In this document: in pieces, positions 6,269 through 56,762 of the stretch | How positions within the stretch are numbered: position 1 is the first letter of the stretch | How the letters are laid out: each line of letters starts with the position of its first letter | Assembly (NCBI GenBank): GCA_966250015.1 | Contig: CBINFS010000003.1 | Coordinates: 76,047 to 140,046 of the forward strand | Source of the DNA: an uncultured bacterium | GTDB lineage: Bacteria > Bacteroidota > Rhodothermia > Rhodothermales > DASSAV01 | Length of the DNA: 64,000 bases | Direction: 5' to 3' | The notes under the pieces: generated by a model | The model's database searches: none | What the model saw: only the letters and a program-made list of their open reading frames with translations | What the model was told of the DNA's origin: nothing | Made by a program: the position numbers and the translations under genes

Positions 6269-6337
6269 TTCGATCCGGTGCCATTGTCGGCCTGGTTTTT
6301 GTATCCATACCTGCATGCAAATCAGGTTGGCAATACT

Positions 6338-6994
6338 ATGAATTTACAAGAGCTTACGCAGCTGGTCTCGCTTGGTGAGGGTAAGTTCATCGAGTTCAAG
6401 CGCCAGGTTCCGAAACCGGAAAGGATAGCGAAAGAGATCATTGCGATTGCGAACACGAACGGCGGCAGGCTGTTGCTCGGGGTGGGGGATGACGGAACCA
6501 TCGTCGGCGTGCGTGACGCTGAAGAAGAGGAATACGCGCTGCGTCAAGCCCTCAACGAACACTGTGATCCACCTGTCGAATTCACCACGGTGCGCATCCC
6601 CGTCACGACAAAACGCGAGGTGATCCTCGTTAACGTGCCTGAAAGCCGAAAAAAGCCCCATTTTCTGGTCAATGGGGCAACGAATGGGCGCCGCAGCGCA
6701 TACGTCCGGGTAGACGACAAAAGTGTCGAGGCGAGTAAAGAGGCCGTCCGGCTCATGCGGGCCGAACACCTTTCGGAAGGGGTGGTGTTTGAGTTTGGTG
6801 AGAAGGAGCAGATGCTCATGCGCTACCTCGACCACTACGGCAGGATCAGCGTCGCACAATTTGCAGGTCTGGCCAACGTGCCCATTCGGATCGCCTCTCA
6901 GACACTCGTTCTTCTCACACGTGCGAACGTGCTACGCCTGCACACAGGATTGAAAGAAGATTATTTCACGCTGGCGTACGCGCCATCCGAATAG
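6338..6994 (+). CDS. AlbA_2 (Schlafen-type putative DNA-binding) domain protein with C-terminal winged-HTH-like region
   Basis: LVSLGEGKFIEFKRQVP..IAKEIIAIANTNGGRLLLGVGDDGTIVG matches the AlbA_2/'divergent AAA' signature as I remember it. ATG 6338 is preferred. Confidence 0.65.
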   Translation: MNLQELTQLVSLGEGKFIEFKRQVPKPERIAKEIIAIANTNGGRLLLGVGDDGTIVGVRDAEEEEYALRQALNEHCDPPVEFTTVRIPVTTKREVILVNVPESRKKPHFLVNGATNGRRSAYVRVDDKSVEASKEAVRLMRAEHLSEGVVFEFGEKEQMLMRYLDHYGRISVAQFAGLANVPIRIASQTLVLLTRANVLRLHTGLKEDYFTLAYAPSE

Positions 6995-7124: not shown

Positions 7125-9473
7125 ATGCCAGTAGTAGACGTCATAGCATTGCACGATACCGCCCGCCGGCGGTATCTCAACTATGCATTATCCGTTATTA
7201 CCAGTCGGGCGCTCCCGGACATTCGGGACGGCTTGAAGCCCGTCCAGCGCCGCATTTTATACGCCATGTACGCCAACCTGAGGCTCTATCCGGAGGGAAG
7301 GTACCGGAAGAGCGCCACCGTTGTTGGTGAGGTGATGGGTAAGTACCATCCACACGGTGACTCCGCGATTTACGACGCGATGGTGCGAATGGCGCAAGAC
7401 TTTTCGCTTCGCGCGCCGCTCGTTGACGGCCATGGCAATTTCGGCTCGCTCGACGGTGACAATGCGGCCGCCATGCGGTACACGGAGGCGAAGCTTCGCC
7501 CCCTCGCCATGGAAATGCTGGACGAGATCAAGAAGCAGACCGTCGCATTTCGACCCAATTTTGACGGTACACTTTCTGAGCCGGTCGTGCTGCCGACCAG
7601 AGTGCCGAACCTGCTCGTCAACGGCACGAGTGGCATTGCGGTAGGCATGGCAACGAGCATCCCCCCGCACAACCTTGGGGAGGTGGTCGACGCGCTCGTA
7701 TACATGATCGGAACACCCGGCGCGACGGTGGAGACGCTGGTCAGGCGGTTCATCAAGGGGCCTGACTTCCCGACCGGCGGCCGCATCCTGAATACGGAAA
7801 AGGAGATCATCGAGACCTATCAGAAAGGCGAGGGAGGGTTTGACCTCCGCGGTGAGTACCGGCTGGAAGGTAAGAGCCACATCATCATCTATTCGATACC
7901 GTACGGTGTGACGAAGGCCGATCTGATCGAAAAGATCGCCGAACACATCGCGAGCGAGAAGGTCCCGCAGATCGTTGACATTCGGGACGAATCGACGGAC
8001 GACGTCAGGATCGTCCTGGAACTCAGGCGGGGGGCGTCGGCCGAGGCGGCCATGGCGTACCTCTTCAAACACACGCCCTTGCAGTCGAGGTTCTACGTTA
8101 ACCTGACGTGCCTTCTGCCGACCGAAAACCCGGAGATTTGCACGCCGGGAAAAGTCGACCTGGTCACGATTCTCCGGCACTTTCTCGATTTCCGACTCGA
8201 CGTTGTAAAACGCCGCCTTCGGTGGGAGCTCGAACAGCTCGAAAAGCGGATCCACATCCTCCGGGGGTTCGAGAAGATTTTCGACGCGCTGGACGAAGCG
8301 ATTAAGCTGATACGGTCGTCAAAGGACAAACCGGACGCTGCGCAACGCCTCATTCACCGCTTCAGAATCGACGAGGAGCAGGCAGATGCCATCCTGGAAA
8401 CCAAGCTCTACAAGCTCTCACAGCTCGAGATCGACGCGATTCGCCGCGAGCTCGAGGAGAAGGAAAAGAGAGCGCAGGAGATCCGAGCATTGCTTGCCGA
8501 CGAGGAAGCGCTCTGGGGTGTCGTTAAAACGGAGCTGCGCGATCTCAAAAAGACGTACGCGGACCCCCGCCGGACTGAAATCGCCGGGCCGGACGCCAAG
8601 CTCGACTACACGGAAGAAGACTACATCATCGACGAAGACGTCTACGTCATGGTCACCCGTGACGGATGGATCAAGCGGCAGCGGTCGTATTCCGAAATTC
8701 AGAACATCCGCGTTCGGGAGGGAGACGAGGTTGGTTGGGTTCTCCCGGGATCGACTCGTTCGACCGTCGGCATCTTCACCAGTTTCGGTAAAGCCTACAC
8801 GATTCGCATCGACGAGCTTCCAAGCACGAGCGGATACGGCGACCCGGTCCAGAAGTATTTCGATTTTTCGGACCGCGAGCAGGCGATCGGGGTCGTTTCA
8901 TTCGACGCGCGAATACTCCCGCAGCCAGTACCCGATCCGGAGTCGGCACTCGAGCTGTTTGGTGAGAATGGCACCGCCGCAACCGATCCCCGTTCTGCCT
9001 ACGTGGTAGCGGTAACTGAGAAAGGGCAGACGTTGCGGCTGCCGATCGACGGTTTTGCGGAGCCTTCCACAAAGGTTGGGCGGACGTTTATGAAGCCCGA
9101 GAAGGGAGACCGCGTGCTCGGCGTAATGGTGGCGGCAGGCAACGAGAACGTTTGCCTCGCATCGCACGAGGGACACGTTTTGATCTTCCCGGTGCATCAG
9201 ATCCCCGTTTTTAAGGGTGCTGCGAAAGGGGTCATTGCGATGAGGCTCGGCAAAACCGATCGCATCATCGGGTTTACGCTTTCGTCGGCGGCGCGAGATG
9301 GACTCGAGATCGTGACGAACAGGGGCCGACGCGAGATCGTCCGTACGACGAAATTTGAGGTGGCGAACCGTGGAAACAAGGGGCGTCAGATCATCAAGCG
9401 CGGACACATCGAGCGCGTCGTCGTACCTCCCGTCGAAATCCGGCTCAACGGGCAGGCGAAAAACGGTGACTGA
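7125..9473 (+). CDS. parC: Type IIA topoisomerase subunit A, ParC-like
   Basis: [21 protein letters not shown] (the Q is typical of ParC; GyrA usually has PVHRR), GKYHPHGD, and AAMRYTE with the catalytic Tyr. There is no GyrA box at the start of the CTD. Length 782 aa. Confidence 0.8.
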
Positions 9474-16642: not shown

Positions 16643-16671
16643 TTGATTATCACCAATCCACGGTGCTTTTG

Positions 16672-17622
16672 ATGGCGTCCGAACATCCCATACAACGATA
16701 CCAGGCAGAGATTACGGTTGGAACTGAGTCCAGCGGTCTCGACCTGCTCTCTGCCTTCTTGCAACGGTTCGACCGCGAGCAGACACGCCGCGCATACCGA
16801 AACGACATCTCGCACTTTTTTGAAAGCGAATACGTTTTGCTCGACGACGTTCGGCGAGTCTCGTTCCTTCACGTCAACGAGTACATCGCCCGATTGGAAG
16901 CCGCAGGATTGAAAGCGACGACGATCAAACGAAGGATTGCCGCATTGCGTGGATTTTTCGACTGGCTACTCGCTCTCGAACTCGTCGAAAGAAATCCGGT
17001 GAACCGGCAGTTCGTTCGGCGTGTACGCACCGTCAGGCGCCAGGATCAGACGATCTTTGTGCTCACCGCTCAGCAAGCCGAGGCGTTACTCGCCGCAACG
17101 GAGCTGTCCGGCGAAGCAGCAATACGTGACCGCACGCTGATGACCACGATGATCCATTGTGTGTTGAGACGATCGGAAGCGGCTGCAATGGACGTCGAAC
17201 ACATCAGACCACTCGGCCGCTACTGGGTGCTCGATTTGCCCAAAACGAAAGGCGGCGCCGACCAGTACGTAAAAGTGCCGACGCACGTGGTGGACGAGAT
17301 CGAAGCAATGAAAAGCCACTACGGGATCACGTCGGGGCCTCTCTGGCGTTCGTTCAGCCCCCGAAGCTTTGGTAAACGGCTCACCCCGCACTCGATCTAC
17401 CGGATCGTAAAACAGGCTGCCATACGGGCTGGCTTATCAAACTCTATCGGCGCACACACGCTGCGACATTCCGGATGCACACTGGCCATCGAGGCCGGCG
17501 CCACCCTTCAGCAGGTCCAAGCTCACGCAAGGCACAAAAACCTGGAAACCACGATGGTCTACATCCACCAGCGCGACCGGCTACGCGACAGCGCCGCGGA
17601 CTATATCCATATAAAAAAGTGA
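16672..17622 (+). CDS. Xer-type tyrosine recombinase/integrase
   Basis: N-terminal SAM-like core-binding domain (TRRAYRNDISHFF, TIKRRIAALRGFFDWL). Catalytic residues R (RRSE), K (KTKGG), HxxR (HTLRHSG), H (HKNLETT) and Y (MVYIH) are all present. Confidence 0.9.
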   Translation: MASEHPIQRYQAEITVGTESSGLDLLSAFLQRFDREQTRRAYRNDISHFFESEYVLLDDVRRVSFLHVNEYIARLEAAGLKATTIKRRIAALRGFFDWLLALELVERNPVNRQFVRRVRTVRRQDQTIFVLTAQQAEALLAATELSGEAAIRDRTLMTTMIHCVLRRSEAAAMDVEHIRPLGRYWVLDLPKTKGGADQYVKVPTHVVDEIEAMKSHYGITSGPLWRSFSPRSFGKRLTPHSIYRIVKQAAIRAGLSNSIGAHTLRHSGCTLAIEAGATLQQVQAHARHKNLETTMVYIHQRDRLRDSAADYIHIKK

Positions 17623-17685: not shown

Positions 17686-17735
17686 AAAAAAAAGCGAACC
17701 TCGGAGGCGGAAACCTTCTGGCTCCACCTCCGAGG
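17686..17735 (-). terminator. Rho-independent terminator of the eRF1-like gene
   Basis: A 9-bp stem CCTCGGAGG (17699-17707) pairs with CCTCCGAGG (17727-17735). On the minus strand it is followed by T8 (complement of A8 at 17686-17693). Confidence 0.7.
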
Positions 17736-17758
17736 CTCATTTCGGTTGATTAGTTTGA

Positions 17759-18970
17759 TTAGCTCACCTCTGCTGCCACGCGAGCCGGGAATCGGAATGT
17801 TGCGGCCAGAGACGCGTTGACAGGCATGTTCTCCGGTTTTAGGGCGTGTACCGAGCCACCGTTCAGGAAGGTATGGACGGCGGCAAGGTCGAGCAGATCG
17901 TAGTCTCCCGTTTTCTGTTTGTCGTGGATGGTCACCGTGTTTGAATTCGGATCGTACCGTCCCCACGCCTGCCGGCCGACGGGTACGAAGATATCTTCGA
18001 TCCTGCTGAATACGGCGGCCGGCACGATCTCCTTGAGGTCGTCCGACGTCCGGTGATCATTTTTGGCGTGTAGCTCCAGGAAGCGCTTCGTTGCTTTTCT
18101 ACGATCCTCCTGGAAAACGGGCTCGACGATGCTCCAGGCTTTTTCGTGGAGCTGTTTGAGCTGCTTATTGGGCAGGTAATCGGGGCTACCGGAAACGATA
18201 CTTTCGTCAATAAGTCGAGGATAGCTGTTGACCTCCCGGTAAATTGGCAGGTAGTAGTCTACGCCGGCGAGGACAAGTGGCGCTTTATCGTCGCCTAGCA
18301 CCTTCATGATACCCTCGTCGATCTCCTGGAAGAATCGGTATAGCTCGTCTTTTGGACGTCGAGCGAGGTCGTCTTCGGACTGTCCGTGTCCGTGGAACGA
18401 CGTTCTGCTCTGATCCCGGTTGCCTTTCGCGGCTGGCCTGATCTCGGCTTCACGTCCCACAGTGACGTCGTACGACAGCGCCTCCTTTATGCTTTTGGGT
18501 ATGTCGTCGGATTTTAGCTCTTTGATGCTATATCGTGTACCAATGAAAAGGCGGACGGAATCAAGGCTGATCGCAACGATATAAAAATGGTTTTCGCTGT
18601 CAAGGAGTGGGAATAGCTGTTTCAGATGGAATCTTGAGCTCGTGACGACGAGCTCGGGGAACGGAATCGGGAGCCTGTAAATGCGTGAAAAGTTGGGAGC
18701 GAGAAAAATGGCGAGACCATCCTCCACGTTTCGCCAGTAGGTTTCACTTTCGACGAGGGACTGAGCGGGACGGAGGACGTCTTCAATTTCCGCATCCCTG
18801 AAGTCGTGCTCCTTCAGCTCAGCGCGAGCCTGTTTTAGAAGGTTTTTGAGCCGGATCGGGTTTTGTGATAGTTCAGATTCAACGTGAAAGGTCGGCATGT
18901 AGATCGAAACGCTCATTGGTTCCTGAACCTGCGCGAGCTCTCTCAACTGGTCTCTACTGAATTGGTCCAT
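17759..18970 (-). CDS. Bacterial archaeo-eukaryotic release factor (eRF1/Pelota-like, baeRF-type) family protein
   Basis: 403 aa. The N-terminus (..EPMSVSIYMPTFHV..QNPIRLKNLLKQA) matches the baeRF families as I remember them. The central SFHGHGQSEDDLARRPKDELYRFF aligns with the eRF1 segment HGRGGQSALRFARLR. The C-terminus FLNGGSVHAL resembles eRF1 domain 3 GG..ILRY. Confidence 0.6.
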   Translation of the reverse strand: MDQFSRDQLRELAQVQEPMSVSIYMPTFHVESELSQNPIRLKNLLKQARAELKEHDFRDAEIEDVLRPAQSLVESETYWRNVEDGLAIFLAPNFSRIYRLPIPFPELVVTSSRFHLKQLFPLLDSENHFYIVAISLDSVRLFIGTRYSIKELKSDDIPKSIKEALSYDVTVGREAEIRPAAKGNRDQSRTSFHGHGQSEDDLARRPKDELYRFFQEIDEGIMKVLGDDKAPLVLAGVDYYLPIYREVNSYPRLIDESIVSGSPDYLPNKQLKQLHEKAWSIVEPVFQEDRRKATKRFLELHAKNDHRTSDDLKEIVPAAVFSRIEDIFVPVGRQAWGRYDPNSNTVTIHDKQKTGDYDLLDLAAVHTFLNGGSVHALKPENMPVNASLAATFRFPARVAAEVS

Positions 18971-19129
18971 AGCGCTCTCGATTCATCTAACAGGTTATGA
19001 ACTGGTTATGCGGCGGAAGCCGCCCTAGATATGGTATGCAAAATTTCAGGTCCGGTTTGGCAGGAGGTTGTCACATTGGTGTAAATGGCCCCAACCCGAC
19101 CTGTATGTAGACCAGTTCTTCGAGAGACG

Positions 19130-42270: not shown

Positions 42271-43396
42271 TTAACTGTTTTCTGTTCCGGCCTGTTCGAG
42301 AAGAAACGCTTTGATGAAAGGTTCGAGCTCCCCTTCCATGACGCCGTGCACGTCGGTAACCTTTGTTTCCGTCCGATGGTCGTTGACCATCGTATAGGGC
42401 TGAAAGACGTAGGACCGAATCTGGCTTCCCCACTCGATCTTTTTCTTCGAGCCCTCCAGCTCGTTCTTGGCGGCTTCCTGAATTTCGCGTTCGAGCTGAT
42501 AGATCCGGCTCTTGACCATGGTCATGGCCCGTTCGCGGTTCTGGAGCTGGCTTCTCTCTTCGGTACATTCAGCGACAACCCGGGCCGGCTCGCCGTTGGA
42601 CAGCGTACCCGTCCAGATCAGGCGGACGCCGGTTTCGACCTTGTTCACGTTCTGCCCGCCCTTTCCACCTGACCTGAACGTTTGGAGTTCGATCTGATCC
42701 GGCGTGATTTCGACGTCGATCTCGTCGTCGATCTCGGGGTAGACGAATACGCTGGTAAAAGACGTGTGCCTACGACCACTCGAGTCGTATGGAGAGATTC
42801 GTACGAGCCTGTGCACACCGGATTCCCCTTTGAGGTATCCGTAGGCGTACGGCCCCGAAAACTCGAGCGAAGCGCTCTTGATGCCGGCGACTTCACCCGG
42901 TTGATATTCGAGGAGATGTACGTCGAATCCGTTCTTTTCTCCCCACCGGGTGTACATTCTGAGCAGCATCTCCGCCCAGTCCTGGCTCTCGGTGCCTCCC
43001 GCTCCGGGATGAATGACGAGGATGGCGTCCCGGTGGTCGTCGGGCCCACTCAGCATACTCCTGAGCTCGAGCGCATCAACGAGCCGTTTCAACTGTTCCG
43101 CTTCCGCCCGAATCTCTCCTTCGAGGCTCTCATCGTTCTCTTCCTCGGCGAGGAGGCGAAGCGTTTCGACGTCCTCTGCCTTTCGTTTCAGCTCGTACCA
43201 CGATTCGAGCCATTCATTTTCGGCAGCAATCTTTTTCTCGACTTCCCGCGCCTGTTCGGGGTTGTTCCAGAAATCAGGATCCAACCGCTTTTCGCTCAAC
43301 TCGGCAACGATCTGTTCACGTTTTTCGACGTCAAAGATAGTCTCCGAGCGTGTGCGCACGCTCCAACAATTGATCTATGTCGATCGATTCTTCCAT
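42271..43396 (-). CDS. prfB: Peptide chain release factor 2, with a +1 programmed frameshift
   Basis: ORF0 is ATG 43396..CTT 43334 (MEESIDIDQLLERAHTLGDYL), then an in-frame TGA at 43333-43331. The +1 frame continues DVEKREQ.. as track ORF 42271..43359. GGQ is present (SGGKGGQNVNK); the tripeptide reads SPY. Confidence 0.95.
43330..43348 (-). other. RF2 autoregulatory +1 frameshift site
   Basis: The minus strand reads CTC GGA GAC TAT CTT TGA C. This gives an SD-like GGAG, the slippery CTT, and an in-frame TGA followed by C, as in E. coli prfB (TAT CTT TGA C). Confidence 0.9.
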
Positions 43397-55596: not shown

Positions 55597-56148
55597 TTAT
55601 AAAGTTTCGACGGCCTGTAGTTCCTCTGCTTTCGAAGCCTCGATCGTCAATCCTGGGTAGAAAACGTATACGGCTTCCCTCACACCGGGCGTTTGCGGGA
55701 ACTCGACCCGTTCTTCCCCTCCGGAAACGAAAAACACGGAAGGCGAGCGCGGTGGTTCGACGCGTAACAGCAAGCCGGTTATGAACAGTACGATTGCAGC
55801 CAGCATGGCAGCTCGTATCGAAATGCGGGTTTGCAGCCGCCAGACTGGTTCGCGGTCGGCGGCACGATCGAGACGCATACGGCTCCCCTTGTGCTGCGCA
55901 AGCCGTTTGAAGAAAGCATCGTCCGTAGCGGGTGGCACTACTATGTGTTCCATCCTGCCGTAGCGCCGGAATCGCATGACACTGTCGAGGGTATGACGGC
56001 AGGAGTCGCACGTAGCCAGGTGTGCAAAGAACTCTGCCTGTCGGCTCGTTGCCAGCTCGCCGTCGACAAACAGGTTCAGCGCCTCCACCATTTCAGGGCT
56101 GCAGCGATCCTTCCCGGATGCCGTGCGATCAATTAATTCAATGCTCAT
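55597..56148 (-). CDS. Anti-sigma factor (zf-HC2 type, single-pass membrane)
   Basis: The H..C..C motif [14 protein letters not shown], a TM segment [16 protein letters not shown], and position immediately downstream of the ECF sigma gene. Confidence 0.8.
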
Positions 56149-56189: not shown

Positions 56190-56762
56190 CTATTCTGATT
56201 CGACCTCCCACGACTCTTTCTGAAGCACCACCTCCATGTAATCGGCCAACTTACGTCTTGCCTTGAACAGGCGCGACTTGACGGCACTCATCGTACTCCG
56301 GGTGATCGCCGCGATCTCTTCATACGAAAGATTCTGATACTCTCGTAATACGATGACTTCACGGTAGTCGGGCTTCAATTCGGCGAGGTAGCGATTGATC
56401 AGGTCGATCTGCTCGCTTTTCTCCATACGGCTAACAGGCGTATCCGTTGCGTACGCTACGGGCTCGCCTTCATTTTCAAGAGAGGTCTGTTTGCTCACCC
56501 GCCGGAGATAATTCAGGCATTGATTCCGGGCGATGGTGAATAACCACGACTTGAAGCTGCTGGTATTTATGAGACGATCACGATTCTCGTAGACCCGCAG
56601 AAAGGTCTCCTGCATGATGTCCTGCGCCGGATCGCGATCGAGGAGCATTTTGACGCAGAAGGCATAAACGCTACCCTTGTACCTGTTATAAAGAGATACG
56701 AAGGCAAACTCGTCTCCGGCCTGAAAAGCCTCGATCAAGGTTTTATCGTCCGTGTGCATCAC
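56190..56762 (-). CDS. ECF-family RNA polymerase sigma factor (sigma-70 regions 2 and 4)
   Basis: FVSLYNRYKGSVYAFC, QETFLRVYEN, FKSWLFTIARNQCLNYLRR, REYQNLSYEEIAAITRSTMSAVKSRL. Confidence 0.93.
   Translation of the reverse strand: MMHTDDKTLIEAFQAGDEFAFVSLYNRYKGSVYAFCVKMLLDRDPAQDIMQETFLRVYENRDRLINTSSFKSWLFTIARNQCLNYLRRVSKQTSLENEGEPVAYATDTPVSRMEKSEQIDLINRYLAELKPDYREVIVLREYQNLSYEEIAAITRSTMSAVKSRLFKARRKLADYMEVVLQKESWEVESE

Follow-up and report, generated by a model that had tools for sequence, protein, structure and literature searches.

A Balon-family gene with a subfamily-specific F-H-G-[H/Q]-G loop in an uncultured Rhodothermales bacterium: a candidate ribosome hibernation factor

Introduction

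Balon, the product of AOC03_06830 of Psychrobacter urativorans (PDB 8rd8/8rdv/8rdw; Helena-Bueno et al., Nature 2024, PMC10901736), was found in the A site of the ribosomes of this bacterium, and baeRF-type proteins of its architecture were thereby established in 2024 as ribosome hibernation factors. Here we describe a gene from an uncultured Rhodothermales bacterium that encodes a protein of the same three-domain, aeRF1-like architecture. The gene lies on the minus strand (17759..18970) of a stretch of 64,000 nucleotides (GenBank assembly GCA_966250015.1, contig CBINFS010000003.1, positions 76,047 to 140,046 of the forward strand), which we call the window. From its sequence and predicted structure we assign its product, the window protein, to the Balon family, which makes up the baeRF-1 clade within the aeRF1 superfamily.

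Balon and its mycobacterial relatives Msmeg1130 and Rv2629 are A-site binders that have neither a GGQ nor a NIKS motif and leave the catalytic centre inert (PMC10901736). These factors bind the decoding centre leaving the mRNA untouched, place a lasso-like loop around A2602, are barred from the catalytic centre by U2585, trap the tail of bL27 and contact EF-Tu through a beta-hairpin of the C-terminal domain (PMC10901736). In Balon itself, a His-Pro (HP) motif in the N domain contacts A1492/A1913, the C-terminal domain faces EF-Tu and the stalk, binding is independent of mRNA and the nascent chain is preserved (PMC10901736). The genes of the mycobacterial homologues are induced by hypoxia. A Balon homologue of Synechocystis has been described on hibernating 70S ribosomes together with LrtA; the ribosomes that carried it were all vacant and lacked EF-Tu, and its contacts with the peptidyl-transferase centre and the decoding centre use residues unlike those of the Psychrobacter protein (preprint 10.64898/2026.07.03.736309). 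For the baeRF-1 clade as a whole, Burroughs and Aravind (PMC6514570) described the loss of the catalytic glutamine in most families, the conservation of an Arg in the helix that comes next, and the C-domain hairpin, which in their account is an insert of two strands within the Pelota-like domain.

Results

The gene is an open reading frame (ORF) with an ATG start that encodes 403 amino acids (aa), as the initial annotation of the stretch had it, and has no paralogue within the window. That annotation, made by eye, read the product as an eRF1-like protein of the baeRF type. The assignment is correct, because Pfam places the middle domain in baeRF_family7 (PF18849; E = 2.9e-40, 138.2 bits against a gathering threshold of 27.2, profile positions 1-144 of 144). 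The matches to baeRF_family3 (1.2e-37) and baeRF_family6 (1.3e-28) overlap this one, as do those to families 8 and 11; families 7, 3 and 6 score 138, 130 and 101 bits and all pass their gathering thresholds of ∼27-31. The proposed Pfam search was thus borne out for the baeRF models but not for eRF1_1/2/3, which give no match in the 403-aa protein at E-values up to 10. All the segments singled out by the initial annotation are found in the protein (VSIYMPT from residue 21, QNPIRLKNLL from 36, LVLAGVDYY from 232 and FLNGGSVHAL from 368), and HGHGQ occupies residues 193-197 (codons 18380-18394), exactly where it had been placed.

Searches of families and structures single out Balon. The NCBIfam model NF052287, 'AOC03_06830 family ribosome hibernation factor', matches residues 9-394 over profile positions 1-361 (2.6e-42). 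In a sequence search of the PDB, chain B of the Balon structures 8rd8/8rdv/8rdw was the only significant match (phmmer 1.2e-19), with an alignment to 8rd8_B over the full length (residues 9-391 against 5-366), and the E-value improves to 4.3e-31 when a profile of 121 homologues is used. The Balon family has been delimited by HMMER searches from P. urativorans Balon with an inclusion E-value of 0.01, at most three iterations and a length of at least 300 aa (PMC10901736); the 403-aa window protein is reached by the direct phmmer match. Subfamily positions conserved at 90% or more number 104, and 38 of them, distributed across all three domains, are identical in Balon. The residue patterns shared with Balon are Q-x-P-I-x-L-K-N, R-x-P, R-F, F-F and P-L-V. 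Similarity to the mycobacterial proteins is lower: identity to Msmeg1130 and Rv2629 is 13-14%, and the NCBIfam MSMEG_1130 family matches at E = 0.026 only. On this evidence the gene is a new member, within a distinct subfamily, of the already described Balon hibernation-factor family. The initial annotation's description of the family as experimentally uncharacterised has been overtaken, the closest solved relatives (Balon, Msmeg1130 and Rv2629) being ribosome hibernation factors.

The protein is common and its subfamily very large, with thousands of 50%-identity clusters: 10,477 cluster representatives are recovered at E <= 1e-3 and 4,710 at E <= 1e-30. The subfamily spans Rhodothermales/Salinibacteraceae, Cyanobacteria, Anaerolineae and others, and includes many cyanobacterial members at 40-44% identity to the window protein. 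Conservation was assessed in three sets: a close set of 121 sequences, with the 120 closest homologues at 45-99% identity; a genome set of 76 homologues, drawn from named genomes in five phyla (Rhodothermales/Salinibacteraceae, many Cyanobacteria, Anaerolineae, Acidimicrobiia and Desulfobacterota-type genomes); and a diverse set of 150 sequences that represent 50%-identity clusters and share 34-47% identity with the window protein.

An AlphaFold2 model built from the 121-sequence alignment has a mean predicted local distance difference test score (pLDDT) of 83.9 and a predicted template modelling score (pTM) of 0.75. Comparison of the model with the PDB by Foldseek ranks Balon at the top (1.1e-24, template modelling (TM) score 0.62-0.69), followed by Msmeg1130 (2.6e-17), the archaeal and eukaryotic release factors aRF1/eRF1 (∼1e-13; 4af1 7.7e-14, 5lzv 1.8e-13), Rv2629 (8e-13) and Pelota/Dom34 (3oby 1.9e-8, 2vgn 2.3e-6). 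The two mycobacterial structures (PDB 8v9j/8v9l/8v9k) share the same fold with TM scores of 0.56-0.70. The structure prediction called for by the initial annotation therefore recovers a three-domain aeRF1-like fold matching aRF1/eRF1 and Pelota, with Balon ranked ahead of them.

The N-terminal domain (∼residues 1-125; 18596..18970), delimited from the secondary structure of the model, corresponds to the domain that faces the decoding centre in Balon. It contains a conserved helix start, Q36-N-P-I-R40-L-K-N43, in which Q36, R40 and N43 are invariant in the close set and 87-97% conserved in the diverse set; Q36, K42 and N43 are identical in Balon. A string check of the 403-aa protein found no NIKS. 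As in Balon, NIKS and GGQ are both absent, and a beta-hairpin is inserted in the C domain.

The middle domain (residues 129-284, the baeRF_family7 span; 18119..18586) has an RNase-H-like core, and its elements follow in the model as beta-beta-beta, a loop, a helix (206-225) and the strand LVLAG (232-236). In the middle domain of eRF1 the GGQ loop precedes a long helix, in the same order of elements. The 53-residue loop of the window protein (residues 153-205; 18356..18514), with pLDDT <50 at 168-200, sits where the GGQ loop of eRF1 would be. In the phmmer and profile alignments it corresponds to the Balon segment ...TTGDGGSDRSANN..., and both proteins have a long middle-domain loop containing G-x-G (TGDGGS in Balon). 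We infer that this loop is the counterpart of the lasso loop of Balon.

The C-terminal domain (∼residues 305-395; 17786..18058) is modelled with pLDDT >90 and is covered by the full-length alignment with Balon. Its beta-hairpin insertion (residues 336-348; 17927..17965) is formed by strands 336-340 and 345-348, both predicted with high confidence, and aligns by phmmer to Balon ...YIQAAKVDEDAQTLTMAD. W336 and G337 are invariant in the close set and reach 97% and 100% in the diverse set. According to the model, this hairpin is the predicted equivalent of the hairpin through which Balon contacts EF-Tu (PMC10901736), and it matches the two-strand insert described for the baeRF families (PMC6514570).

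The segment which the initial annotation regarded as GGQ-like lies within the long loop, and its residues differ sharply in conservation. The signature of the subfamily is F192-H193-G194-H195-G196 (18383..18397, minus strand), with the consensus F-H-G-[H/Q]-G, which is kept in the 76 genome homologues from five phyla. Conservation of H193, G194 and G196 is 90% or higher in the close set and amounts to 80%, 96% and 86% in the diverse set, where position 195 is H or Q in 84%. Q197 (18380-18382), on the other hand, is specific to the narrow clade of the window protein: HGHGQ[S/T] is limited, among the 121 sequences, to the window protein and P0001, P0002 and P0003 (99%, 82% and 62% identity), and position 197 is elsewhere V, G, R, A or S. 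In the diverse set its six commonest residues are V, A, G, D, S and T. The string GGQ is absent from the window protein and occurs in none of the 121 close and none of the 76 genome homologues; it is sporadic in the diverse set (2 of 150). The claim of a retained catalytic Gln thus fails, since Q197 is confined to the window protein and its three closest relatives, all with at least 62% identity, and the 'GGQ-like' glutamine is a lineage-specific coincidence. The initial annotation had staked its interpretation on conservation of the HGHGQ residues; as the H-G-x-G core is conserved and the glutamine is not, that interpretation survives in part only.

The two GGQ carriers of the diverse set, P0161 and P0265, have the motif inside the loop, and the P0161 loop reads VHGQGGQS, nearly the eRF1 string HGRGGQS. 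If GGQ is conserved within their clades, a catalytic role would be easier to argue for these two baeRF proteins than for the window protein.

The alignment with eRF1 that had been made by eye places the HG.G loop correctly. A single human eRF1 sequence was used for our own comparisons. With hmmsearch (filters off), a profile of the middle domain sets H-G-x-G against H180-G181-R182-G183 and matches up the LVLAG of both proteins; this local alignment, with a score of -0.7 bits, is not significant and serves as a consistency check only. In its register eRF1 Q185 falls on position 198 and not on 197. With hhalign, the family alignment against the same sequence gave a full-length probability of 0.3% and a sensible alignment in the N domain alone, and a global run of the middle domain gave nothing useful. 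Relative to aRF1/eRF1, the window protein has a homologous three-domain fold in which an HG.G loop takes the place of the HGRGGQ loop and is followed by the long helix and the LVLAG strand, but it lacks NIKS and a conserved GGQ or Gln, and its loop is ∼five times longer.

In HMMER alignments HGHGQS corresponds to TGDGGS of Balon, which lacks the nearly invariant F-H-G-[H/Q]-G found in the subfamily of the window protein. The most plausible reading is that the segment descends from the ancestral catalytic loop in degenerate form and has lost the glutamine. The Arg conserved in the helix after the loop is R212 in the window protein, in agreement with the baeRF families. Those families differ in another respect: poor loop conservation is described for families 1, 2 and 6 (PMC6514570), whereas the loop core is strongly conserved here. 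Such conservation shows that the loop is under selection, presumably for a specific contact peculiar to the subfamily.

The gene is followed by its own intrinsic terminator (17686..17738, minus strand), a hairpin with a 19-bp stem (17696-17738) and then GC and U8 (17686-17693). The terminator given in the initial annotation as 17699-17735 plus T8 is real: the hairpin has a folding energy of -37.8 kcal/mol (z = -7.4), and none of 200 shuffled sequences was as stable. A simple terminator scan missed it and folding recovered it. In the 159-nt spacer upstream of the gene, a conserved 22-nt block, GGCCATTTACACCAATGTGACA (19069..19090, minus strand), is a putative promoter or operator to which no known motif could be assigned. 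The block is identical at 21 of 22 positions in the locus of a 62%-identity relative (L001). Copies resembling it, with 2-5 mismatches in 19 nt, precede the called ORF starts by 83-170 nt in L001, L007, L010, L012 and L015; the block can be recognised in front of several orthologues at ∼50% identity, and it is found whether or not a cyclase gene lies upstream. A second putative promoter element, TGCATACCATA (19030..19040, minus strand), occurs in L001 with one mismatch, and the conserved region with both blocks lies at ∼7876-7930 of that locus. Because the gene has both a conserved upstream block and its own terminator, it may well form an independently regulated monocistronic unit.

Downstream, the gene converges with a tyrosine recombinase gene (16663-17622, plus strand) with matches to Phage_integrase and a SAM-like N domain. 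The initial annotation called it a Xer-type recombinase, and it is indeed Xer-like, scoring far under the XerC/XerD equivalog cut-offs (about 120 against about 330 bits). Hand counts of low-GC lines had been taken there as a hint of horizontal acquisition. The guanine plus cytosine (GC) content of the gene is 0.539 against a window mean of 0.568 (standard deviation 0.016; z = -1.8 among 51 long ORFs), and at third codon positions (GC3) it is 0.641 against 0.672, which is no outlier (z = -0.9). The deficit is located in codon position 2 and reflects amino-acid composition. GC rises along the thirds of the gene (0.509, 0.533, 0.575), as does GC3 (0.607, 0.615, 0.701). The hand counts of 26, 32, 30 and 38 G+C of 60 were exact on recount, and the low-GC lines all lie within the N-terminal third.

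Gene order around the gene is conserved in this lineage. On the 80-kb contig of the 62%-identity relative the order of the window is kept from IMP dehydrogenase to gyrA: IMP dehydrogenase, M24 peptidase, GT4, HATPase, miaA, AsnC, cyclase and the Balon homologue are followed by recombinase, ABC ATPase, kinase, LacI, SAICAR synthetase, gyrB and gyrA. Most of this order, convergent recombinase included, is also kept on a 1-Mb contig of a 47%-identity relative; common to both are GT4, HATPase, miaA, AsnC, cyclase, Balon homologue, recombinase, ABC, (kinase), LacI and SAICAR synthetase. Clustering the flanking ORFs of 80 loci showed that the recombinase adjoins the gene in 28 and the upstream cyclase in 22, all of them Rhodothermales-type, and that cyanobacterial loci have quite different neighbours. 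The exact protein recurs across many metagenome samples in the same context. The surroundings in the window are housekeeping genes, including a rimP-nusA-infB-rbfA-truB-ribF-rpsO-pnp cluster; there are no tRNA genes in the window, PADLOC found no defence families (0), and neither Hsp20 nor any other operon partner reported for Balon genes adjoins the gene there. The gene is a stable, vertically inherited gene of the core chromosome in the Rhodothermales-type lineage. The proposals of an acquisition and of a role in a conflict system are unsupported because GC3 is normal, synteny that includes the recombinase is kept down to 47% identity, and the window holds neither a defence match nor a tRNA gene.

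The recombinase is a conserved neighbour (L003-L036, L059, L079) whose orientation depends on lineage: it is convergent in the window, L001, L007, L009-L011, L027 and L087 and co-directional elsewhere, and many Salinibacter/Salinivenus loci have two recombinase ORFs in tandem. In the Salinibacteraceae-type loci L014, L016, L019, L022, L026, L030, L032, L033 and L059, three genes recur upstream of the cyclase: a rhodopsin-looking one (C11), recognised by eye only from its RYVDWLLTVPLL-type helix, a lycopene-cyclase-like membrane protein (C5) and an amino-oxidase/phytoene-desaturase-like one (C3). Their recurrence is probably mere lineage synteny.

Elsewhere in the window, canonical RF2 is encoded by prfB (42271-43359, minus strand; TIGR00020, 473 bits against a cut-off of 370), as the initial annotation had noted, and the window protein is additional to it. 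The gene has a classical programmed +1 frameshift (43330-43396, minus strand): a 21-codon ORF0 has its ATG at 43394-43396 and runs to TAT CTT TGA C, with the frameshift site CTTTGAC at 43330-43336 and GGAG in front of it, and translation of the main ORF goes on in the +1 frame. The listed 362-aa ORF therefore lacks the true N terminus. An extracytoplasmic function (ECF)-type sigma factor gene (56190-56762, minus strand) adjoins a gene for a zf-HC2 anti-sigma-like protein (55597-56148, minus strand). Within the window the true outlier in GC is this sigma gene (GC 0.513, z = -3.4, GC3 normal). A Schlafen AlbA_2-domain protein (6278-6994, plus strand; PF04326, 2.8e-24) is encoded among housekeeping genes, next to a gene of the G3P_acyltransf family (PF02660).

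Discussion

We propose that the gene encodes a Balon-family ribosome hibernation factor that would bind the A site without catalytic activity, and we put the probability of this at roughly three in four. It is the most likely reading because the protein combines the three domains, the long loop, the hairpin and the Q-N-P-I-R-L-K-N helix start. In stressed or stationary-phase cells the protein would enter the ribosomal A site, where its N domain, having no NIKS, would meet the decoding centre without reading mRNA, and its C domain with the W-G beta-hairpin would be turned to EF-Tu or the L7/L12 stalk. Occupation of the A site would block the binding of tRNA and factors and so protect the ribosome; peptidyl-tRNA hydrolysis would form no part of this action.

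Several observations weigh against this proposal. Identity to Balon is only 23-25%, and the score of 145.6 bits against NF052287 is far under the equivalog cut-off of 330, so that the window protein is assigned to a different subfamily from the one this model covers. The HP motif, whose position in Balon we deduced from the Balon sequence, is absent and not conserved, because the lone His-Pro of Balon (REHPAND) aligns to E31-S32 within a conserved V-E-S-E. The hairpin carries W-G where Balon has A-A. F-H-G-[H/Q]-G is very strongly conserved, and the Psychrobacter structure offers no explanation for it. The contacts that the preprint describes for the Synechocystis homologue, a possible member of the subfamily, fit a loop signature specific to the subfamily. 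No RaiA/HPF or stress gene stands beside the gene in the window, and no neighbour gene family is common to the Rhodothermales and cyanobacterial loci, some clusters being Pfam-annotated. We know of no member of the window protein's subfamily that has been tested.

A different function was suggested by HGHGQ itself: the protein might be a catalytic eRF1-like peptidyl-tRNA hydrolase, a non-canonical release or rescue factor in which HGHGQ is the equivalent of GGQ and Q197 the catalytic residue. The HG.G segment does lie, in the model, in a loop topologically equivalent to the GGQ loop, it pairs, together with LVLAG, with human eRF1 in the alignment that was not significant, its two glycines are nearly invariant, and 11 of the 121 close sequences carry HGRG as eRF1 does. 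In bacterial release factors the glycines and the backbone outweigh the Gln side chain in catalysis, which also counts for a hydrolase. A few baeRF-1 families may be catalytic (Burroughs and Aravind, PMC6514570). We nevertheless consider such a hydrolase very improbable. Q197 is present in only 4 of the 121 close homologues, at 62% identity or more, and in none of the other 74 genome homologues, Gln is not among the six commonest residues there in the diverse set, and the subfamily has no conserved GGQ; in the register of that alignment eRF1 Q185 pairs with the neighbouring position, the loop has ∼53 residues against roughly 11 in eRF1 (by count on the human sequence), the eRF1_1/2/3 models remain silent at E = 10, and all structurally characterised relatives are non-catalytic and kept out of the peptidyl-transferase centre. 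A non-catalytic rescue like that of Pelota/Dom34, in which stalled or damaged ribosomes are recognised and split or recycled instead of being held in long hibernation, is also unlikely, though the fold does match Pelota/Dom34 (3oby 1.9e-8, 2vgn 2.3e-6). Dom34-like relief of stalled ribosomes is one option proposed for baeRF-1 (PMC6514570), and a possible parallel with RRF and Pelota is raised in the Synechocystis preprint (10.64898/2026.07.03.736309), but the protein resembles Balon much more closely than Pelota (1e-24 against 1e-8), Balon needs no mRNA for binding and leaves the nascent chain in place, and no candidate splitting partner recurs beside the gene across phyla.

The immediately adjoining tyrosine recombinase raises a further alternative, namely that the gene is cargo of an acquired element, or part of a translation-targeting conflict or defence system, moved by this recombinase. 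The slightly low total GC (z = -1.8) would fit, and the baeRF-1 clade is said to spread by lateral transfer (PMC6514570). We give this hardly any credence. It is largely refuted by synteny, the gene order being kept at 62% and 47% identity and the recombinase adjoining the gene in 28 loci of the Rhodothermales type; GC3 is unremarkable (z = -0.9), the exact protein stands in the same context in many samples among housekeeping genes, and the window has no PADLOC match and no tRNA gene. A mobile island, which the recombinase had suggested, was ruled out on the same grounds of synteny, GC3, tRNA genes and defence matches.

For the proposed non-catalytic hibernation factor, the loop signature is the feature that sets the subfamily apart from Balon. 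Its F-H-G-[H/Q]-G core persists across five phyla, in a loop whose other positions vary and which is predicted to be flexible. There is a slim chance, judging from this conservation, that the core is a modified and still functional descendant of the HGRGGQ loop that reaches into the peptidyl-transferase centre. If so, the subfamily would free the nascent chain before hibernation, or would lock A2602/U2585 in a manner unlike any solved structure, and it would represent a bacterial aeRF1-type factor with peptidyl-transferase-centre chemistry, unlike Psychrobacter Balon. The signature provides a concrete mutational target for the engagement of the peptidyl-transferase centre by divergent Balon homologues.

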